Virus record (IMG/VR): IMGVR_UViG_2706794670_000012
Origin: a virus
Taxonomy: Duplodnaviria; Heunggongvirae; Uroviricota; Caudoviricetes
Length of the DNA: 7,126 nt
Reading direction: 5' to 3' (one strand)
The position numbers and the translations under genes are program-made. The notes beneath the pieces are model-generated. The model did no database searches, had not been told where the DNA came from, and was given only the letters and a program-made list of their open reading frames with translations. Shown here one piece after another: positions 1 to 5,416 of the stretch. Positions within the stretch are counted from its first letter, which is position 1. Each line of letters opens with the position of its first letter.

Positions 1-182
1 AGGGACAGCTGATAGAAACAGAAGCCACTGGAGCACCTCAAAAACACCATCATACACTAAATCAGTAAGTTGGCAGCATCACCGGGGGCGCAGACCCTGA
101 TTATGTTATCTGGGCGAAAGAAGTTCAGGGTATTAACCGTGCATGGACTTTCAGACACTGGAAAGGCACTGGAACGGTTGGC

Positions 183-581
183 GTGATGGTGGCGACAAAC
201 GATCCGGAACGCCCGGCCCCGGATGAAAGCGTGATTAACGCAGTCAGGGACCACATCCTTCCTCTGGCACCTGTTGCCGGAAGCGGATTGTATGTATTCG
301 GTGCCACAGAAAAAGTCATCCCGATGACGATTGCATTATCGAAAGACACACCGCAGATCAGGACTGCAATAAAAGCAGAGCTGAATGCACTGATGTTACG
401 GGATGGTGTGCCAGAGGGGCGTATGTATCTGTCCAGAATCAGTGAGGCCATCAGTTTGTCTGCTGGTGAAGTGGCCCACCGGTTAATCGTCCCTTCATCG
501 GATATTGACCTGGGGGAGACCGAGCTTCCGGTGCTCGGCGAGATCACCTGGCAGGCTTATGACCCGGCAAGGAGTAAATAA
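183..581 (+). CDS. Baseplate J-like protein (Mu gp47 / P2 gpJ family), C-terminal portion; probably disrupted, because protein-like sequence continues upstream in frame to 69 and is preceded by an in-frame TAA at 66-68
   Basis: Longest ORF starts at GTG 183 and ends at TAA 579-581, overlapping the next gene start (TAATG). The same frame upstream (69-182) translates as VGSITGGADPDYVIWAKEVQGINRAWTFRHWKGTGTVG, which resembles the conserved mid-protein motif of baseplate J-like proteins as I recall it. No ATG/GTG/TTG lies between 69 and 183. Its position directly upstream of a DUF2313-like gene matches Mu-like baseplate gene order. Family assignment is from memory. Confidence 0.55.
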   Translation: MMVATNDPERPAPDESVINAVRDHILPLAPVAGSGLYVFGATEKVIPMTIALSKDTPQIRTAIKAELNALMLRDGVPEGRMYLSRISEAISLSAGEVAHRLIVPSSDIDLGETELPVLGEITWQAYDPARSK

Positions 582-1171
582 TGGATTCGTTACAGGATGA
601 TTATACAAAGCTGCTGTACGGACTGATGCCGCCGGGGCCTGCATGGTCAGATACCGACGGTGTACTTGACGGTCTGGCACCATCGCTTGTGCGTGTTCAC
701 CAGCGGGCTGATGAACTGGTGATTGAAATCGATCCCGGTCAGTCCACAGAGCTGATTGAACGTTATGAAGAATTGTATGGTTTACCTGATTCCTGTTCCC
801 CTGTCGGAACCCAGACATTACGCCAGCGTCAGCAACGTCTTGAAGCAAAAGCCAATGTGGCTGGTGGCATAAATGAGCAGTTCTTCCTGGATCAGCTTGA
901 GGCGCTGGGATATACCGGCGTAACGATCGAACAGTTCCAGCACTTGGATGCAAGCCCCGATCCGGAATGGGGAGATCGCTGGCGTTATTTCTGGCGTGTG
1001 ACGTTGCCGATGGATGCCGGTGCTCAGTGGCAGACATGCACGGACGCCTGCAACACACCGATCCGGACGTGGGGGGATACGGTTGCGGAGTGCGTGATTA
1101 ATAAATTATGTCCGTCACACACCGTCGTTTTATTTTCCTATCCAGATGAGGATGAAGATGCACAGGATTGA
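581..1171 (+). CDS. Phage tail protein, DUF2313-like (Mu gp48-like / e14 YmfQ-like)
   Basis: 196-aa ORF with AAGGAG (569-574) 6 nt upstream of ATG 581. The start overlaps the upstream stop by 1 nt. The C-terminal ...WGDTVAECVINKLCPSHTVVLFSY resembles the conserved end of Mu gp48-family proteins as I recall them. It sits between a J-like gene and a tail fiber gene. Confidence 0.75.
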   Translation: MDSLQDDYTKLLYGLMPPGPAWSDTDGVLDGLAPSLVRVHQRADELVIEIDPGQSTELIERYEELYGLPDSCSPVGTQTLRQRQQRLEAKANVAGGINEQFFLDQLEALGYTGVTIEQFQHLDASPDPEWGDRWRYFWRVTLPMDAGAQWQTCTDACNTPIRTWGDTVAECVINKLCPSHTVVLFSYPDEDEDAQD

Positions 1172-2198
1172 TACGCTGACTGCGGTAAAAGATAAGTTTG
1201 GTCCGGGTAAGAACGGATTTACTGACGGAAATCTTCGCACAGGACGTCTTGCTACCTGGCTGAACAGTGCCATGTGGAATGCCATTCAGGAGGAAATCTG
1301 TGGTGTCATTGAGAAGGCCGGGATAGAACTGAATAAAGAAGAACACGACCAGCTATATAAGGCTATATTATTGCTGGTGGGCGGTGCAATTAACGAAGAG
1401 GCATTGCTGATAAAAAATAACCTTTCGGATGTGGAAGACAGGGATGAGGCTGTTGAAAACCTCGGATTAAAACCCACGGTGGATAAGGCAAAAAATGCCG
1501 TTCAGCGTGATGGCGACACCATGACCGGAGAGCTGAAAATCCGTGGTGTTAATGCGCTGAGGATTTTCAACGAAGCTTTTGGCCTGATTTTTCGTCGTTC
1601 GGAAGAGTGCCTGCACCTTATTCCCACCAGTGAAGGTCAGGGGGAAAATGGCGATATTGGTCCCCTGCGCCCGTTCACCATTAATCTGCGGACGGGTGAA
1701 ATATCCATGTCGCATAAAGTGTCTGTTGGCGGTGGTTCGCAGGTCAATGGTGCGCTGGGTATCGGCGTTCAGAACGCCCTGGGGGGGAATTCAATTGTTC
1801 TTGGTGATAATGACACCGGATTCAAACAGAATGGTGATGGCCTGCTGGATGTTTATGCCAATAGCGTGCATGTGTTGCGTTTTCAGAGTGGCAGTATCCA
1901 GAGTAATAAAGCTGTAAACGTTACAGGACGGGTAACACCGTCAGACTACGGAAACTTTGATGCCCGTTACCAGCAGCGAAATGGTGGCGTGCAGGATGTG
2001 CGGTATGGTTATGAAATGTATTACCCCCCCGGCAGTAACACCGTTTCGTGGACATTTCGCTCACCTTCGGGACACGGGCTGTCAGGGATATCGATATCGG
2101 ATACCGGCCGTAACTCAGCGGATAACGTCAACGGCGTGTATTACCGACCGCTGCAAAAACTGATTAATGGCACCTGGTATAACGTAGCGAGTATTTAA
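1158..2198 (+). CDS. Tail fiber protein (short fiber, 346 aa from ATG 1158) with a C-terminal domain of the P2 gpH / Mu S / P1 S type
   Basis: C-terminal segments (NAVQRDGDTMTGEL; NALGGNSIVLGDNDTGFKQNGDGLLDVYANS; GNFDARY; YRPLQKLINGTWYNVASI) closely parallel the conserved C-terminus of P2 gpH as I recall it. In-frame ATGs lie at 1146, 1152 and 1158; only 1158 has a GAGG (1148-1151) at suitable spacing. The ORF track's longest version starts at 1146. Confidence 0.85.
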   Translation: MHRIDTLTAVKDKFGPGKNGFTDGNLRTGRLATWLNSAMWNAIQEEICGVIEKAGIELNKEEHDQLYKAILLLVGGAINEEALLIKNNLSDVEDRDEAVENLGLKPTVDKAKNAVQRDGDTMTGELKIRGVNALRIFNEAFGLIFRRSEECLHLIPTSEGQGENGDIGPLRPFTINLRTGEISMSHKVSVGGGSQVNGALGIGVQNALGGNSIVLGDNDTGFKQNGDGLLDVYANSVHVLRFQSGSIQSNKAVNVTGRVTPSDYGNFDARYQQRNGGVQDVRYGYEMYYPPGSNTVSWTFRSPSGHGLSGISISDTGRNSADNVNGVYYRPLQKLINGTWYNVASI

Positions 2199-2200
2199 CA

Positions 2201-2746
2201 ATGTTGCATTTAAAAAATATTACGGCAGGTAATCCGAAAACCGCGGAATAATATCAGCTGACAAAACAGTATGATGTCACCTGGCTTTTTTCGGAAGACG
2301 GCAAAAACTGGTATGAAGAACAGAAGAACTTTGCCAGTGACACCATAAAAATGGTTTACACCGGAGACGGGCGCGTGGTGTGGGTCGGTAAGGATGTGAC
2401 AGGCATTGAACCCCGTAACGCCAGTGTTATTGAAGTTCCTGATATTACCGCCAACCGCCGCATTACCGCGCCGGGTTACTGGTTTTACCGCAATGATGAA
2501 TTTGTCTTTGACTACAGACTCAAAGCGGAAGATGAGCGTGATGCCCTTCTGGCTCAGGTCAGTGCCCGGACAGGGGAATGGGAAGAAGACCTGCTGCTGG
2601 GGCTAATCAGCGACGAAGACCGGGAAAAACTGAAAGCGTACCGTATTTACGCGAAATCGCTGCAGGCGATGGATTTCAGCACCATCACTGATAAATCCTC
2701 ATATAACGCCATTGAATGGTCCGTCTCTCCGGAAGGTTCTTCCTGA
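2201..2746 (+). pseudogene. Tail fiber assembly protein (Mu U / e14 Tfa-type chaperone) interrupted by an in-frame TAA at codon 17 (2249-2251); longest intact ORF is 2351-2746 (131 aa)
   Basis: ATG 2201 sits 2 nt after the fiber gene stop. The frame reads [65 protein letters not shown]..., which is colinear with the N-terminus of Mu U-type assembly proteins (MMHLKNI..NPKTKEQYQLTK... as I recall). The TAA falls where homologs have Gln. No ATG/GTG/TTG exists in frame between the stop and ATG 2351, and there is no RBS before 2351. Confidence 0.7.
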
Positions 2747-2769
2747 TTTAATTTATCGCGAGAAAAACT

Positions 2770-4038
2770 ATGTCTGTAGTGATATCAGGTGCGCTGACTG
2801 ATGGCGCAGGCATCCCCATGTCCGGATGCCAGATTATTCTGAAATCCCGTGTAAACACCTCAGAAGTGGTGATGCGTACCAGGGCTGATGTAGTGACCGG
2901 AAATAACGGTGAATATTCGTTTGAGGCACAGGTCGGAAAATATTGCGTGTATCTGAAACGGGACTGGCGCGACGAGTACTGTGTTGGCGACATTGCTGTA
3001 TACGACGACTCAAAGCCCGGCACGCTGAATGACTTTCTGATTGCTCCTGATGAGGGCGACCTGAAACCGGATGTCGTCAAACGCTTTGAGGAAATGGTGG
3101 CGCAGGCGCAGCAGAGCGCCGGGGCCGCAGCCGGAAACGCACAGCAGACGGCGCAGGATGTGGCGGCAGCCGCAGGTTATGCCCGCGCAGCAGAGCAGGC
3201 CAAAAATGACATTGATGCTGCGCTGACCGGCACTCTGAAAACGGCTAACCATCTGTCTGAAATCGCAGCAGCAGGCGAAAAGGCACAACAGAAGTCCCGG
3301 GATAATCTGGGGCTGAAAAGTGCGGCCACGATGGAAGCACAGAGCGACATTTACGACCGGACAAAAGGCCGTCTGGCGATACCCGGCGCATTCGGCTTTG
3401 GGTGTGCTTTTCTGCCTGAAGATGTTATCCGTTTTGACACTAAGAGTGATTTCCTGGCCTGGGTAAGGAATGCGCTGCCAGGTGAATATTCCGTTGCTGG
3501 CCCCTACGACATCATCATACCCGACACACGGTTTGAAGGGGTGCTCAGCATCCGGTGGACTGATGCACGCCCTGAGACAACAGAACCGAGGTACAGAGCC
3601 AAATCCCTTACTTTTTACGGCATTAACGGCCCCATTTATCACACCCGCTACTGCTACTGGCCCATATCCAGACTGACTGGCTGGGTGAAAATAAATATAA
3701 CCACAGAAGATATTATTTACAGAATCGTGGCGAGCTCTGTCTGCAACAGATGGGGAGACCCTGACATTGGCGGGCTGATTATTGCTGCGTACCAGGGAGA
3801 AGCTGACGGTGATAAAGTCATCAGACTTGTCAGGGGGCAGTCATACAGAGGCTCACGACTGGGACCGGTGGGGATTTCAGTGCCCAGTACTCCCACCGGA
3901 ACGTATATAGCATCCCCACAATTTTTCATTACGGGATGTTCAGAGCATTCATTACCGGGGTCATATAGCGCCCTGTCCGGGGTGCCGGATGCTCATGTCT
4001 CTGGCGCAATGCCCGGGCTTTTTATTCGCACATCGTGA
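2770..4038 (+). CDS. Side tail fiber protein with a lambda Stf / StfR-like N-terminal domain, an Ala/Gln-rich central segment and an unrecognised C-terminal (presumed receptor-binding) domain
   Basis: 422-aa ORF. The N-terminus MSVVISGALTDGAGIPMSGCQIILKSRVNTSEVV...VYDDSKPGTLNDFL parallels the N-terminus of lambdoid side tail fibers (MAVKISGVLKDGTGKPVQNCTIQLKA...VYEDSQPGTLNDFL as I recall), followed by an Ala-rich region typical of fiber shafts. The last ~230 aa are not familiar to me. Confidence 0.8.
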   Translation: MSVVISGALTDGAGIPMSGCQIILKSRVNTSEVVMRTRADVVTGNNGEYSFEAQVGKYCVYLKRDWRDEYCVGDIAVYDDSKPGTLNDFLIAPDEGDLKPDVVKRFEEMVAQAQQSAGAAAGNAQQTAQDVAAAAGYARAAEQAKNDIDAALTGTLKTANHLSEIAAAGEKAQQKSRDNLGLKSAATMEAQSDIYDRTKGRLAIPGAFGFGCAFLPEDVIRFDTKSDFLAWVRNALPGEYSVAGPYDIIIPDTRFEGVLSIRWTDARPETTEPRYRAKSLTFYGINGPIYHTRYCYWPISRLTGWVKINITTEDIIYRIVASSVCNRWGDPDIGGLIIAAYQGEADGDKVIRLVRGQSYRGSRLGPVGISVPSTPTGTYIASPQFFITGCSEHSLPGSYSALSGVPDAHVSGAMPGLFIRTS

Positions 4039-4048
4039 GGAATGCACC

Positions 4049-4855
4049 GTGGAAATTAAAAAAATCATTAATCCCCGTTATACCGAAAGTGGCGCAGTAG
4101 ACTGTGACGTTTTTTTTGACGACAGGGACCAGGCAGTCCCCTACACAGCCACCGCTGATGATGTCGCACCGACGGGTCAGCGAATCTGGCAGGAACTGCA
4201 AAGTGGCAAATGGGGTGAGATAGCCCCATTCACTGTGACACCAGAAATGCTGGAAGCGGCCAGAGAGGCCAGACGTCAGGAAATTGAAGCATGGCGCACA
4301 GAACAGGAGGCGAAGCCGTTCACGTTTGAATGGAACGGTCGTATCTGGAATGCTGGCCCCAACTCACTGGGCCGCCTGTCCCCGGTAGTCATGCTGGCAA
4401 AATCTGTCACAGCACAAACNNNNNNNNNNNNNNNNNNNNNNNNNNNNNNNNNNNNNNNNNNNNNNNNNNNNNNNNNNNNNNNNNNNNNNNNNNNNNNNNN
4501 NNNNNNNNNNNNNNNNNNNNNNNNNNNNNNNNNNNNNNNNNNNNNNNNNNNNNNNNNNNNNNNNNNNNNNNNNNNNNNNNNNNNNNNNNNNNNNNNNNNN
4601 NNNNNNNNNNNNNNNNNNNNNNNNNNNNNNNNNNNNNNNNNNNNNNNNNNNNNNNNNNNNNNNNNNNNNNNNNNNNNNGATGCCGATAATCAGCAGGTGA
4701 AACTGTCGATGCCGGAACTGGAAGAACTGGCGGCAGCAATGGTGCAGGCGCAGGTCGATCGCAACGATGAGATTTATCGCCGTCAGCGTGAAATGAAAGA
4801 GGAGCTGAGTGGTCTGGAGGATTTGGGAACAATTAGAGCGTTTGATGTTACGTAA
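4049..4855 (+). CDS. Putative tail fiber assembly/chaperone protein; ORF spans the 259-N assembly gap, so length, continuity and even single-gene status are unverified
   Basis: GAGGA (4037-4041) lies 7 nt upstream of GTG 4049, immediately after the fiber gene stop (TGA 4036-4038). The ORF-track start at ATG 3989 would overlap the fiber gene by 50 nt and has no RBS. Position directly downstream of a fiber gene is the main argument; the sequence (...TPEMLEAAREARRQEIEAWRTEQEAKPFTFEWNGRIWN...) is only loosely chaperone-like. The pre- and post-gap segments are in the same frame only by virtue of the arbitrary gap length. Confidence 0.45.
   Translation: MEIKKIINPRYTESGAVDCDVFFDDRDQAVPYTATADDVAPTGQRIWQELQSGKWGEIAPFTVTPEMLEAAREARRQEIEAWRTEQEAKPFTFEWNGRIWNAGPNSLGRLSPVVMLAKSVTAQXXXXXXXXXXXXXXXXXXXXXXXXXXXXXXXXXXXXXXXXXXXXXXXXXXXXXXXXXXXXXXXXXXXXXXXXXXXXXXXXXXXXXXXDADNQQVKLSMPELEELAAAMVQAQVDRNDEIYRRQREMKEELSGLEDLGTIRAFDVT
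4420..4678. other. Assembly gap (259 N)
   Basis: Uninterrupted run of n characters from 4420 to 4678. Confidence 1.
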
Positions 4856-4901
4856 TTGGTAAGCTGCATCGTGTTAAATTGTTACCCTTATTTACAACTA
4901 G

Positions 4902-4935
4902 AAAAGCCTCTGACTTCATAATCAGAGGCTTTTTT
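4902..4935. terminator. Rho-independent, probably bidirectional terminator at the end of the tail-fiber operon
   Basis: AAAAGCCTCTGA (4902-4913), 8-nt loop, TCAGAGGCTTTT (4922-4933), forming a perfect 12-bp stem with a GC-rich core, followed by a T run to 4935. The A run on the 5' side gives a U tract for the opposite strand as well. Confidence 0.6.
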
Positions 4936-4936
4936 G

Positions 4937-4952
4937 AAATGCACGTGCATTT
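4937..4952. repeat. Perfect 16-bp palindrome AAATGCACGTGCATTT; candidate protein-binding site, function unknown
   Basis: The sequence equals its own reverse complement. It lies between the terminator and the ssrA 3' end. Confidence 0.9.
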
Positions 4953-5053
4953 TGCGTGTATATTTTTGTCTTTTTCTGGTCCGCTTACTGTCTGGTCAGT
5001 GTCCGTAAGTGACTGTTTTTATAGTCTCTGTCCGGTTGCAGTCCTGTCAAAAG

Positions 5054-5416
5054 TGGTGGAGCTGGCGGGAGTTGAACCCGCGTCCGAAATTCCTACATCC
5101 TCGGTACTACATGCTTAGTCAGTCTTTACATTCGCTTGCCAGCTGCGGACGGACACGCCACTAACAAACTAGCCTGATTAAGTTTTAACGCTTCAACCCC
5201 AGGCAGGGCTTCCACGCGATCTCTTTTGGGTTTGACCTCTCTTGATCCCCGTCCTAAGAGCGGAGGCTAGGGAGAGAGGGCTCTAAGCAGGTTATTAAGC
5301 TGCTAAAGCGTAGTTTTCGTCGTTTGCGACTATTTTTTGCGGCTTTTTACGAGGCCAACCGCCCCTCGGCATGCACCTTGGGTTTCGCAAATCCCGTCGA
5401 ATCCAGAATCAGCCCC
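5054..5416 (-). ncRNA. ssrA: tmRNA (transfer-messenger RNA, SsrA), 363 nt
   Basis: The reverse complement of 5054-5416 reads GGGGCTGATTCTGGATTCGACGGG...GGGTTCAACTCCCGCCAGCTCCACCA, matching the E. coli tmRNA as I recall it over the full length. The tag-peptide reading frame GCAAACGACGAAAACTACGCTTTAGCAGCTTAA (ANDENYALAA-stop) lies at 5295-5327 on the minus strand. The tRNA-like 3' end finishes in CCA. Confidence 0.97.

Follow-up and report, generated by a model that had tools for sequence, protein, structure and literature searches.

We examined a 7126-bp stretch of DNA (hereafter, the window) from the Caudoviricetes record IMGVR_UViG_2706794670_000012, which is the tail-fiber end of a decayed prophage of the phiP27 family integrated at ssrA, the gene for transfer-messenger RNA (tmRNA). 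An initial annotation, made from the letters and their open reading frames (ORFs), had described two co-directional fiber-plus-chaperone modules at positions 1158–4855, and the four genes concerned were indeed found tightly packed on the plus strand, with intergenic gaps of 2, 23, and 10 nt. Module 1 consists of a Mu S-type tail fiber (fiber 1) and a gene of the Mu U family of fiber assembly chaperones (chaperone 1), and module 2 of a fiber with a lambda Stf-type N-terminal domain (fiber 2) and a DUF4376 protein that is its putative chaperone (chaperone 2). The features of the window are as follows.

1–83, no strand: partial insertion sequence IS1 (terminal 83 bp), 100% identical to the IS1 ends in the P1 and SfIV records
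84–581, plus strand: 3' part of a baseplate J/Mu gp47-type gene, severed by IS1 (Pfam Baseplate_J, 3e-08; collinear with phiP27 L52 and the C311 baseplate J)
581–1171, plus strand: intact gene for a baseplate wedge protein of the Mu gp48/YmfQ family (Pfam Phage_Mu_Gp48, 2.3e-25; 98% amino acid (aa) identity to phiP27 L53)
1158–2198, plus strand: fiber 1, an intact Mu S-type baseplate tail fiber of 346 aa (5yvq_A, 4.6e-25; PHROG 6859, 5.7e-209)
2201–2746, plus strand: chaperone 1, a Mu U/Caudo_TAP tail fiber assembly gene with a TAA codon at 2249–2251 (Pfam Caudo_TAP; translation)
2770–4038, plus strand: fiber 2, intact, 422 aa (PF08400 phage_tail_N, 2.4e-63)
4049 (GTG)–4855, plus strand: chaperone 2, a DUF4376 protein of 187 aa (DUF4376 at 61.6 bits on an intact identical copy)
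4899–4936, plus strand: intrinsic terminator closing the late (tail) operon (15-bp stem and U-run, −20.6 kcal/mol, z = −6.4 against shuffles)
5049–5080, no strand: attachment-site core at the ssrA 3' end, the right prophage boundary (32 bp found again at the end of the intact C311 prophage that bears the integrase)
5054–5416, minus strand: tmRNA gene ssrA
Beyond ssrA: smpB, ratA, and an RnfH-family gene (order from the window ORFs and the annotation of relatives)

A decayed prophage end at ssrA

No sigma-70-like promoter was found within 1000–5100. Given the lack of an internal promoter-like site, the 23-bp gap between chaperone 1 and fiber 2, and the terminator at the 3' end, the fiber and chaperone genes are predicted to be expressed as one unit with the tail operon.

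Eight finished chromosomes (loci L018–L025) match the window at 99.7–100% identity to the left and right of a run of Ns in the last of the four genes and served as the sister set, and an exact look-up found the fiber 2 protein in many assemblies. In finished near-identical genomes a full IS1 separates the N- and C-terminal parts of baseplate J, as in a simple insertion. A second IS1 (L018 6551–7304) lies between the tape-measure and DNA-circularization genes of the finished sister genomes, whose prophages were viewed over 10 kb upstream. Because of the IS1 in baseplate J and the second IS1 upstream, this prophage copy is a defective fossil, and neither fiber is used by a phage here; the suggestion that host range may be determined functionally by module 2 is thus moot. 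With its two IS1 copies and a nonsense codon in chaperone 1, the element is not a complete, potentially inducible prophage, and fiber 1 or the DUF4376 gene is frameshifted too in some sister genomes. In L019 and L023 (at about 12080), two genomes of the Shigella sonnei type, homology to the window ends at 5091, beyond which comes another prophage, with an integrase, so that the ssrA site is occupied in tandem.

The run of Ns at 4420–4678 (259 N) lies where the initial annotation had placed a gap, and the finished genomes L018–L025 fill it with only 16 bp, GCATATGGCGTGGGGT. The DUF4376 gene is therefore intact, and that the run keeps the reading frame is a coincidence. An 81-codon in-frame insertion under the run was considered and rejected, as 16 bp were found in every relative, including the eight finished sister genomes. 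A profile search of the genome contigs with the fiber 2 alignment recovered 10 loci, with 4–5 copies of the fiber cassette per Shigella genome; this repetition could have caused an assembly break at the run, masking being the other possibility.

Fibers, anchors, and chaperones of the two modules

The assignment of module 1 to a Mu/P2-type fiber with a U-type chaperone was borne out. Fiber 1 matches the Mu tail fiber S (PDB 5yvq_A, E = 4.6e-25) over query stretches 34–101, 83–134, and 126–349, which span its N-terminal, middle, and C-terminal tip parts, and PHROG 6859 (tail fiber) aligns to it end to end from the Met at 1158 (5.7e-209). The module lies directly 3' of the gp47 (J) and gp48 wedge genes, in the same order as in Mu, and by homology with Mu, the N-terminus of fiber 1 would attach to the baseplate. 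Chaperone 1 matches Pfam Caudo_TAP (7e-21), and its intact orthologue in Escherichia coli FDAARGOS_944 matches Mu U (5yvq_B, E = 9e-39). Codon 17 of chaperone 1 is TAA (2249–2251), at a position where the intact orthologue has Gln; this nonsense codon, which had been noticed from the window alone, was present in all eight finished sister genomes. By descent, chaperone 1 is a member of the Mu U-type family, though probably non-functional here.

The length of fiber 1 differs among relatives (332, 346, and 402 aa). At 346 aa, the window copy is 56 codons shorter, in-frame, than the closest E. coli orthologue (402 aa), and the difference lies in the distal half of the gene (window 1891–1926 versus L002 9808–10011).

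The N-terminus of fiber 2 belongs to a different anchor family. PF08400 (prophage tail fiber N-terminal) is complete in this protein (2.4e-63), so the ORF at 2770–4038 is a fiber gene with a lambda Stf-type N-terminal domain, as the initial annotation had it. The protein is made up of a collar/anchor domain (aa 1–93), a predicted helical shaft (about aa 100–179), and a C-terminal globular domain (aa 212–422). A profile of fiber 2 homologues matches the N-terminal 94 residues of Ur-lambda Stf (9e7m, E = 2.7e-30) and the collar spike gp40 of the Vibrio myophage XM1 (7kjk, E = 6.8e-12). The predicted fold of the N-domain also agrees with both the Ur-lambda Stf collar domain and the XM1 collar spike, and modeling matches it to the neck-fiber anchors of the myophages XM1 and A-1(L), with a predicted immunoglobulin-like (Ig-like) anchor followed by a coiled coil. 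In an AlphaFold model (31 sequences), the predicted local distance difference test (pLDDT) score was ~80 for residues 1–90 and ~85 for residues 212–422. The C-terminal domain (window 3403–4035, aa 212–422) had no convincing match in the PDB, where we found weak matches with high root-mean-square deviation to staphylococcal phage receptor-binding proteins.

Domains homologous to the fiber 2 N-domain serve as structural components of the virion in lambda, XM1, A-1(L), and Bxb1, and every solved structural relative forms a ring on an assembly of the tube, tip, or neck. In Ur-lambda, residues 1–94 of Stf form a 12-copy collar round the gpV/gpM junction, from which flexible linkers lead to four trimeric fibers (PMC12617516). 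At the XM1 neck, the head-completion and tail-terminator proteins anchor six gp40 trimers (PMC10457771). Module 2 is not simply a copy of the lambda (Ur-lambda) Stf/Tfa system, however. The tail is that of a siphovirus in lambda and a contractile, Mu-like one here; the lambda chaperone is a Tfa/Caudo_TAP protein whereas the one here is of the DUF4376 type, with no cognate Tfa 3' of fiber 2; and lambda Stf has 774 aa, compared with 422 aa in fiber 2, which carries an unrelated distal domain. XM1 gp40 differs as well, being encoded away from the tail genes and having a tailspike-like C-terminal end, and the neck location of fiber 2 would be one carried over by analogy.

The first 110 codons of fiber 2 share 72–97% aa identity across prophage backgrounds, with a ratio of nonsynonymous to synonymous substitution rates (dN/dS) of 0.03–0.38 at dS values of up to 2.3; judged from these rates, the anchor domain is under purifying selection in all those backgrounds. 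A PF08400-like N-domain was detected in 311 phage-collection records, of which only phiP27, Rac-SA53, and one oddly labeled record were ≥80% identical, the remainder being lambdoid siphophages at about 45% identity. The N-domains of myophage prophages form their own clade (≥72% mutual identity, and ~45% to the lambdoid phages), which was found in 147 of 5426 complete E. coli genomes. A chaperone 1/fiber 2 junction of the E. coli type is also present in PP818812.1 (Actinobacillus phage vB_Apl-pPE4; 42568–43766) with 87% nt and 91% aa identity, which is surprising for a phage of a Pasteurellaceae host.

The start of the fourth gene was placed at the GTG at 4049 (187 aa) by alignment with five homologues, whereas the annotated ATG at 3989 would give 207 aa. 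On the intact identical copy DUF4376 scored 61.6 bits (cut-off 25) over residues 70–174 of 187, and the gene halves that flank the run of Ns in the window score near the Pfam threshold for this family. DUF4376 proteins have proved necessary for active fibers in experiments on gp27 of Alteromonas phage V22 and on a protein of a Campylobacter CJIE1 prophage (PMC7289586, PMC7882524). By family and by its position directly 3' of the fiber gene, the fourth gene would be the chaperone of fiber 2. Horizontal transfer has spread the tail fiber plus DUF4376 modules of Alteromonas phages V22 (gp26/gp27) and A5 (gp8/gp9) among phages of unrelated morphology (PMC7289586, PMC10579305). They resemble module 2 in that a DUF4376 chaperone gene directly follows the fiber gene, but the fiber proteins are others, the PF08400 anchor is lacking, and the hosts are marine.

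The module 2 partner had been called a chaperone different from that of module 1, and the distinction holds at the family level: hhalign of the two chaperone profiles (DUF4376 and Caudo_TAP) gave a probability of 0.4%, and no relationship was detected. The resemblance between DUF4376 and the C-terminus of Mu U claimed in PMC7882524 was not reproduced with our shallow alignments. No PDB sequence relative of the DUF4376 protein was found, and NCBIfam gave no match for any of the four proteins. Hybrid chaperones with a Caudo_TAP N-terminal part and a DUF4376 C-terminal part exist, and in some E. coli prophages a fiber assembly gene directly abuts a DUF4376 gene (PHROG 11571; E. coli matches H84, H90, H91, and H94), a pattern suggestive of domains having been shuffled between these chaperone families.

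Gene order in relatives, module 2 as a cassette, and inversion machinery

The same four-gene order is found in phiP27 (L54–L57), FDAARGOS_944, RMDEC364, Rac-SA53, C311, and M8, and all four genes are intact in the relative records inspected. The closest parallel in the phage collection is the Stx2e phage phiP27 (NC_003356), in which L52–L57 encode baseplate J, a gp48-type wedge protein, a fiber, a Caudo_TAP chaperone, a PF08400 fiber, and a small DUF4376-type protein, followed by attR, with no invertase. Its nt identity to the window is about 91–93% over 84–3137, the extent of the megablast match to phages, with 93% over 84–2002 and 87% over 2423–3137 in a collinear comparison. The two differ in fiber 2, which has 490 aa in phiP27 compared with 422 aa here and a different distal part, homology ending at window position 3137. 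They also differ in attachment site, which in the phiP27 record is other than the ssrA site, and in state, IS1 and the nonsense codon having degraded the window copy. In E. coli C311 an intact prophage occupies the ssrA site, with ~43.6 kb between 32-bp direct repeats (L006 2768–2799) and a tail end collinear with the window. More broadly, at least 88 of the 5426 complete E. coli genomes contained the junction of chaperone 1 and the fiber 2 N-domain. By gene order, the tandem two-fiber layout is normal for the phiP27 family and not unusual, and the feature as a whole belongs to a known prophage family, as a decayed representative assembled from modules of known types; our literature searches found no description of the dual-fiber layout.

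Module 2 also occurs behind other tails. In E. coli RMDEC364, the block from the last 140 codons of fiber 1 through the DUF4376 gene is ~96% identical to the window but lies behind another type of baseplate (DUF2612); the prophage is Rac-like, and its type of sheath matches Pseudomonas phage E217-type sheaths and not XM1. The gene order of RMDEC364 recurs in the Rac-SA53 phage. All-against-all BLASTP between C311 and RMDEC364 showed that they share only the four cassette genes (fiber 1 as its C-terminal two thirds), and among phiP27-type, RMDEC364-type, and checkable P2-like tail genes, no virion protein outside the cassette was shared by BLASTP. In three P2-like prophages, a PF08400 fiber comes after gene D and closes the tail cluster; its DUF4376 partner is intact in one, fragmentary in the second, and not annotated in the third. 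Module 2 lies there ~6 kb (six tail genes) 3' of an H/G-type fiber-assembly (chaperone) gene that ends at the left edge of the locus. From this distribution of genes, module 2 is an autonomous, horizontally mobile two-gene cassette with which, on the side of the attachment site, the late operon ends in several unrelated lineages of contractile-tail prophages.

An ipaH type III effector gene lies directly 3' of the DUF4376 gene in related Shigella and enteroinvasive-type loci. In L011/L012 (region 12019–14891) a truncated Gin/Pin-like invertase gene comes next (L011), and in L002 (region 12874–15825) and L004 (region 13498–16451) a C-terminal fragment of a tail fiber assembly gene.

The element ends at ssrA without an invertase gene, as first described, and this absence extends to 10 kb on either side in the eight finished genomes. 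A tblastn search with Mu Gin gave no match in the window, in the eight sister loci with these flanks, or in phiP27, C311, and RMDEC364, and the annotation of the C311 prophage includes one tyrosine integrase and no serine invertase. No gix-like site was found in the window, either with a consensus (≤3 mismatches) or with the 34-bp site of the Mu record (≤10/34 mismatches), and no meaningful inverted repeat brackets the fiber genes in the window, which has only short, imperfect ones. The arrangement thus differs from the invertible segments of Mu (G/Gin), P1 (C/Cin), and e14 (P/Pin) in having no inverted S'/U' pair, gix site, or Gin. In Mu, P1, and e14, the fiber keeps one N-terminal anchor, and inversion exchanges the alternative C-terminal segments that follow it. 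The comparison that the initial annotation drew with these systems is not apt, since each fiber here is a complete gene with its own anchor domain.

In Mu, the gix site (L030 1455–1488) overlies codons of the conserved NLGL motif of fiber S. This motif is kept in both window fibers (at about 1452–1485 and about 3300–3315), in direct and not inverted orientation, and fiber 1 retains the AAAACCTCGG core, about 22/34 identical to gix by eye count.

Probable display of both fibers and alternative explanations

We consider it likely that the window holds the distal end of the late operon of a temperate phiP27-family myophage at ssrA that encoded two complete, non-alternative fiber systems, both displayed. 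The Mu S-type fiber 1 would sit on the baseplate, folded by its Mu U-type (Caudo_TAP) chaperone, and the short fiber 2, carrying the 93-residue Ig-like collar domain of the lambda Stf type, would be folded by the DUF4376-type chaperone. We infer simultaneous rather than alternating display from the logic of the domains and from their conservation: as the two anchor domains differ, the fibers would not compete for one site and both could be displayed. Such joint display would also explain why there is no invertase, inverted pair, or crossover site, as no switch would be needed. A phage that displays two different fibers was one of the options raised in the initial annotation, and it is the one favored by the evidence; the observation of two fiber modules stood, and so did this part of its interpretation, but not the replacement in progress that it offered as the other option.

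In a contractile tail, the tube is covered by a sheath. For fiber 2 a neck collar is the likeliest site because the sheath covers the tube and both solved contractile-tail examples of the fold sit at the neck. By analogy with XM1 and A-1(L), its collar domain would most plausibly form a ring there, and the fibers would be whisker-like accessory adhesins.

Several points weigh against this picture. In our literature searches we came across no proteomic or imaging study of phiP27-type virions. No PDB match ties the neck and tail-terminator proteins of related prophages to XM1. The anchor is 72–97% identical across three tail types that have no other recognizable shared protein, which is hard to fit with a specific neck partner; the docking site of fiber 2 may instead be a generic surface, the periphery of the baseplate, fiber 1, or chaperone 1. 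In the AlphaFold model the central shaft of fiber 2 has a pLDDT below 50, as expected for the monomer of a trimer. Finally, one Shigella flexneri locus (L011/L012, a Rac-SA53-type remnant) carries a truncated Gin/Pin-like gene 2.5 kb 3' of the cassette, past ipaH. In L011 this gene has 77% identity to Mu Gin; the fibers of the L011/L012 locus are not flanked by inverted repeats, and the remnant is without bearing on the lineage of the window.

Of the alternatives, a branched fiber survives best, although we regard it as unlikely. The N-domain of fiber 2 would then dock on fiber 1 or on the bound U-type chaperone, giving one compound adhesin. This would fit with the fact that phiP27-type and RMDEC364-type prophages share only the C-terminal two thirds of fiber 1, chaperone 1, fiber 2, and the DUF4376 protein, and with the single conserved DNA block formed by the 3' half of chaperone 1 and the fiber 2 N-domain. 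Mu U is also reported to stay on the fiber tip, as cited in PMC7882524. However, the conserved block could equally well be a linker at which two variable host-range cassettes recombine, the solved relatives of the N-domain all form rings on tube, tip, or neck, and six tail genes lie between module 2 and the H/G-type module of the P2-like prophages.

A fiber replacement caught in progress, with module 2 newly inserted and module 1 decaying, is very improbable. It would account for a nonsense codon in chaperone 1 beside an intact fiber 2 and chaperone 2, and module 2 does behave as a mobile cassette on a deeper timescale. Yet the tandem layout with four intact genes is found in phiP27 (a complete phage genome according to its record), in C311, and in others, as well as in at least 88 E. 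coli genomes, and the comparison of related ssrA prophages, including the intact one of C311, argues against a recent insertion of module 2. Fiber 1 itself is intact, and since the prophage bearing the nonsense codon has an essential baseplate gene disrupted by IS1 as well, this points to general decay and not to a selective loss of module 1.

We give equally little credence to module 2 being no part of the virion, i.e., moron cargo or a hitch-hiking remnant at the attachment-site-proximal end, like the ipaH genes in Shigella. Its place at the operon end beside the attachment site is where morons accumulate, ipaH effector genes stand directly 3' in several relatives, and there are 4–5 copies per Shigella genome. 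The full fiber architecture (anchor, coiled coil, and distal domain) with a dedicated chaperone, the predicted co-transcription with the tail genes, the strong purifying selection on the anchor domain, and the structural role of homologous domains in the lambda, XM1, A-1(L), and Bxb1 virions all speak against cargo.

Least credible of all is an ordinary invertible host-range segment with its invertase and crossover sites beyond the window, for which the truncated Gin/Pin-like gene of the related S. flexneri locus and the NLGL motif kept in fiber 1, on which gix lies in Mu, could be cited, but both fibers are complete, on the same strand, and with an N-terminus each, no gix-like sequence (≤10/34 mismatches) or bracketing inverted repeat is present in the window, and no invertase is present in the 10-kb flanks of the 99.7–100% identical genomes or in the complete C311 prophage.

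The locus itself is minor, a fossil prophage end that is unchanged in many sequenced Shigella genomes and has the gene order of the phiP27 record. What it adds, modestly, is that tandem fiber modules without an invertase should be read as two fibers with two anchors and not as a broken switch. In addition, many contractile-tail prophage operons of E. coli and Shigella carry at their end the lambda Stf collar domain, for which a structure became available only in 2025. More tentatively, and with some doubt on our part, the PF08400 fiber and the DUF4376 chaperone could form a plug-in second-fiber cassette that works on at least three contractile-tail architectures (Mu-like phiP27, E217-like Rac-SA53, and P2), its anchor (72–97% identity between copies, dN/dS about 0.1) docking on a generic feature, likeliest as a ring at the neck. 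If so, temperate enterobacterial myophages would gain lambda-style accessory fibers that are exchangeable independently of the baseplate fiber. An anchor that is portable across unrelated tails would offer a handle for adding receptor-binding fibers to engineered myophages or tailocins, and would help to explain the host-range mosaicism of Stx- and ipaH-carrying prophages.

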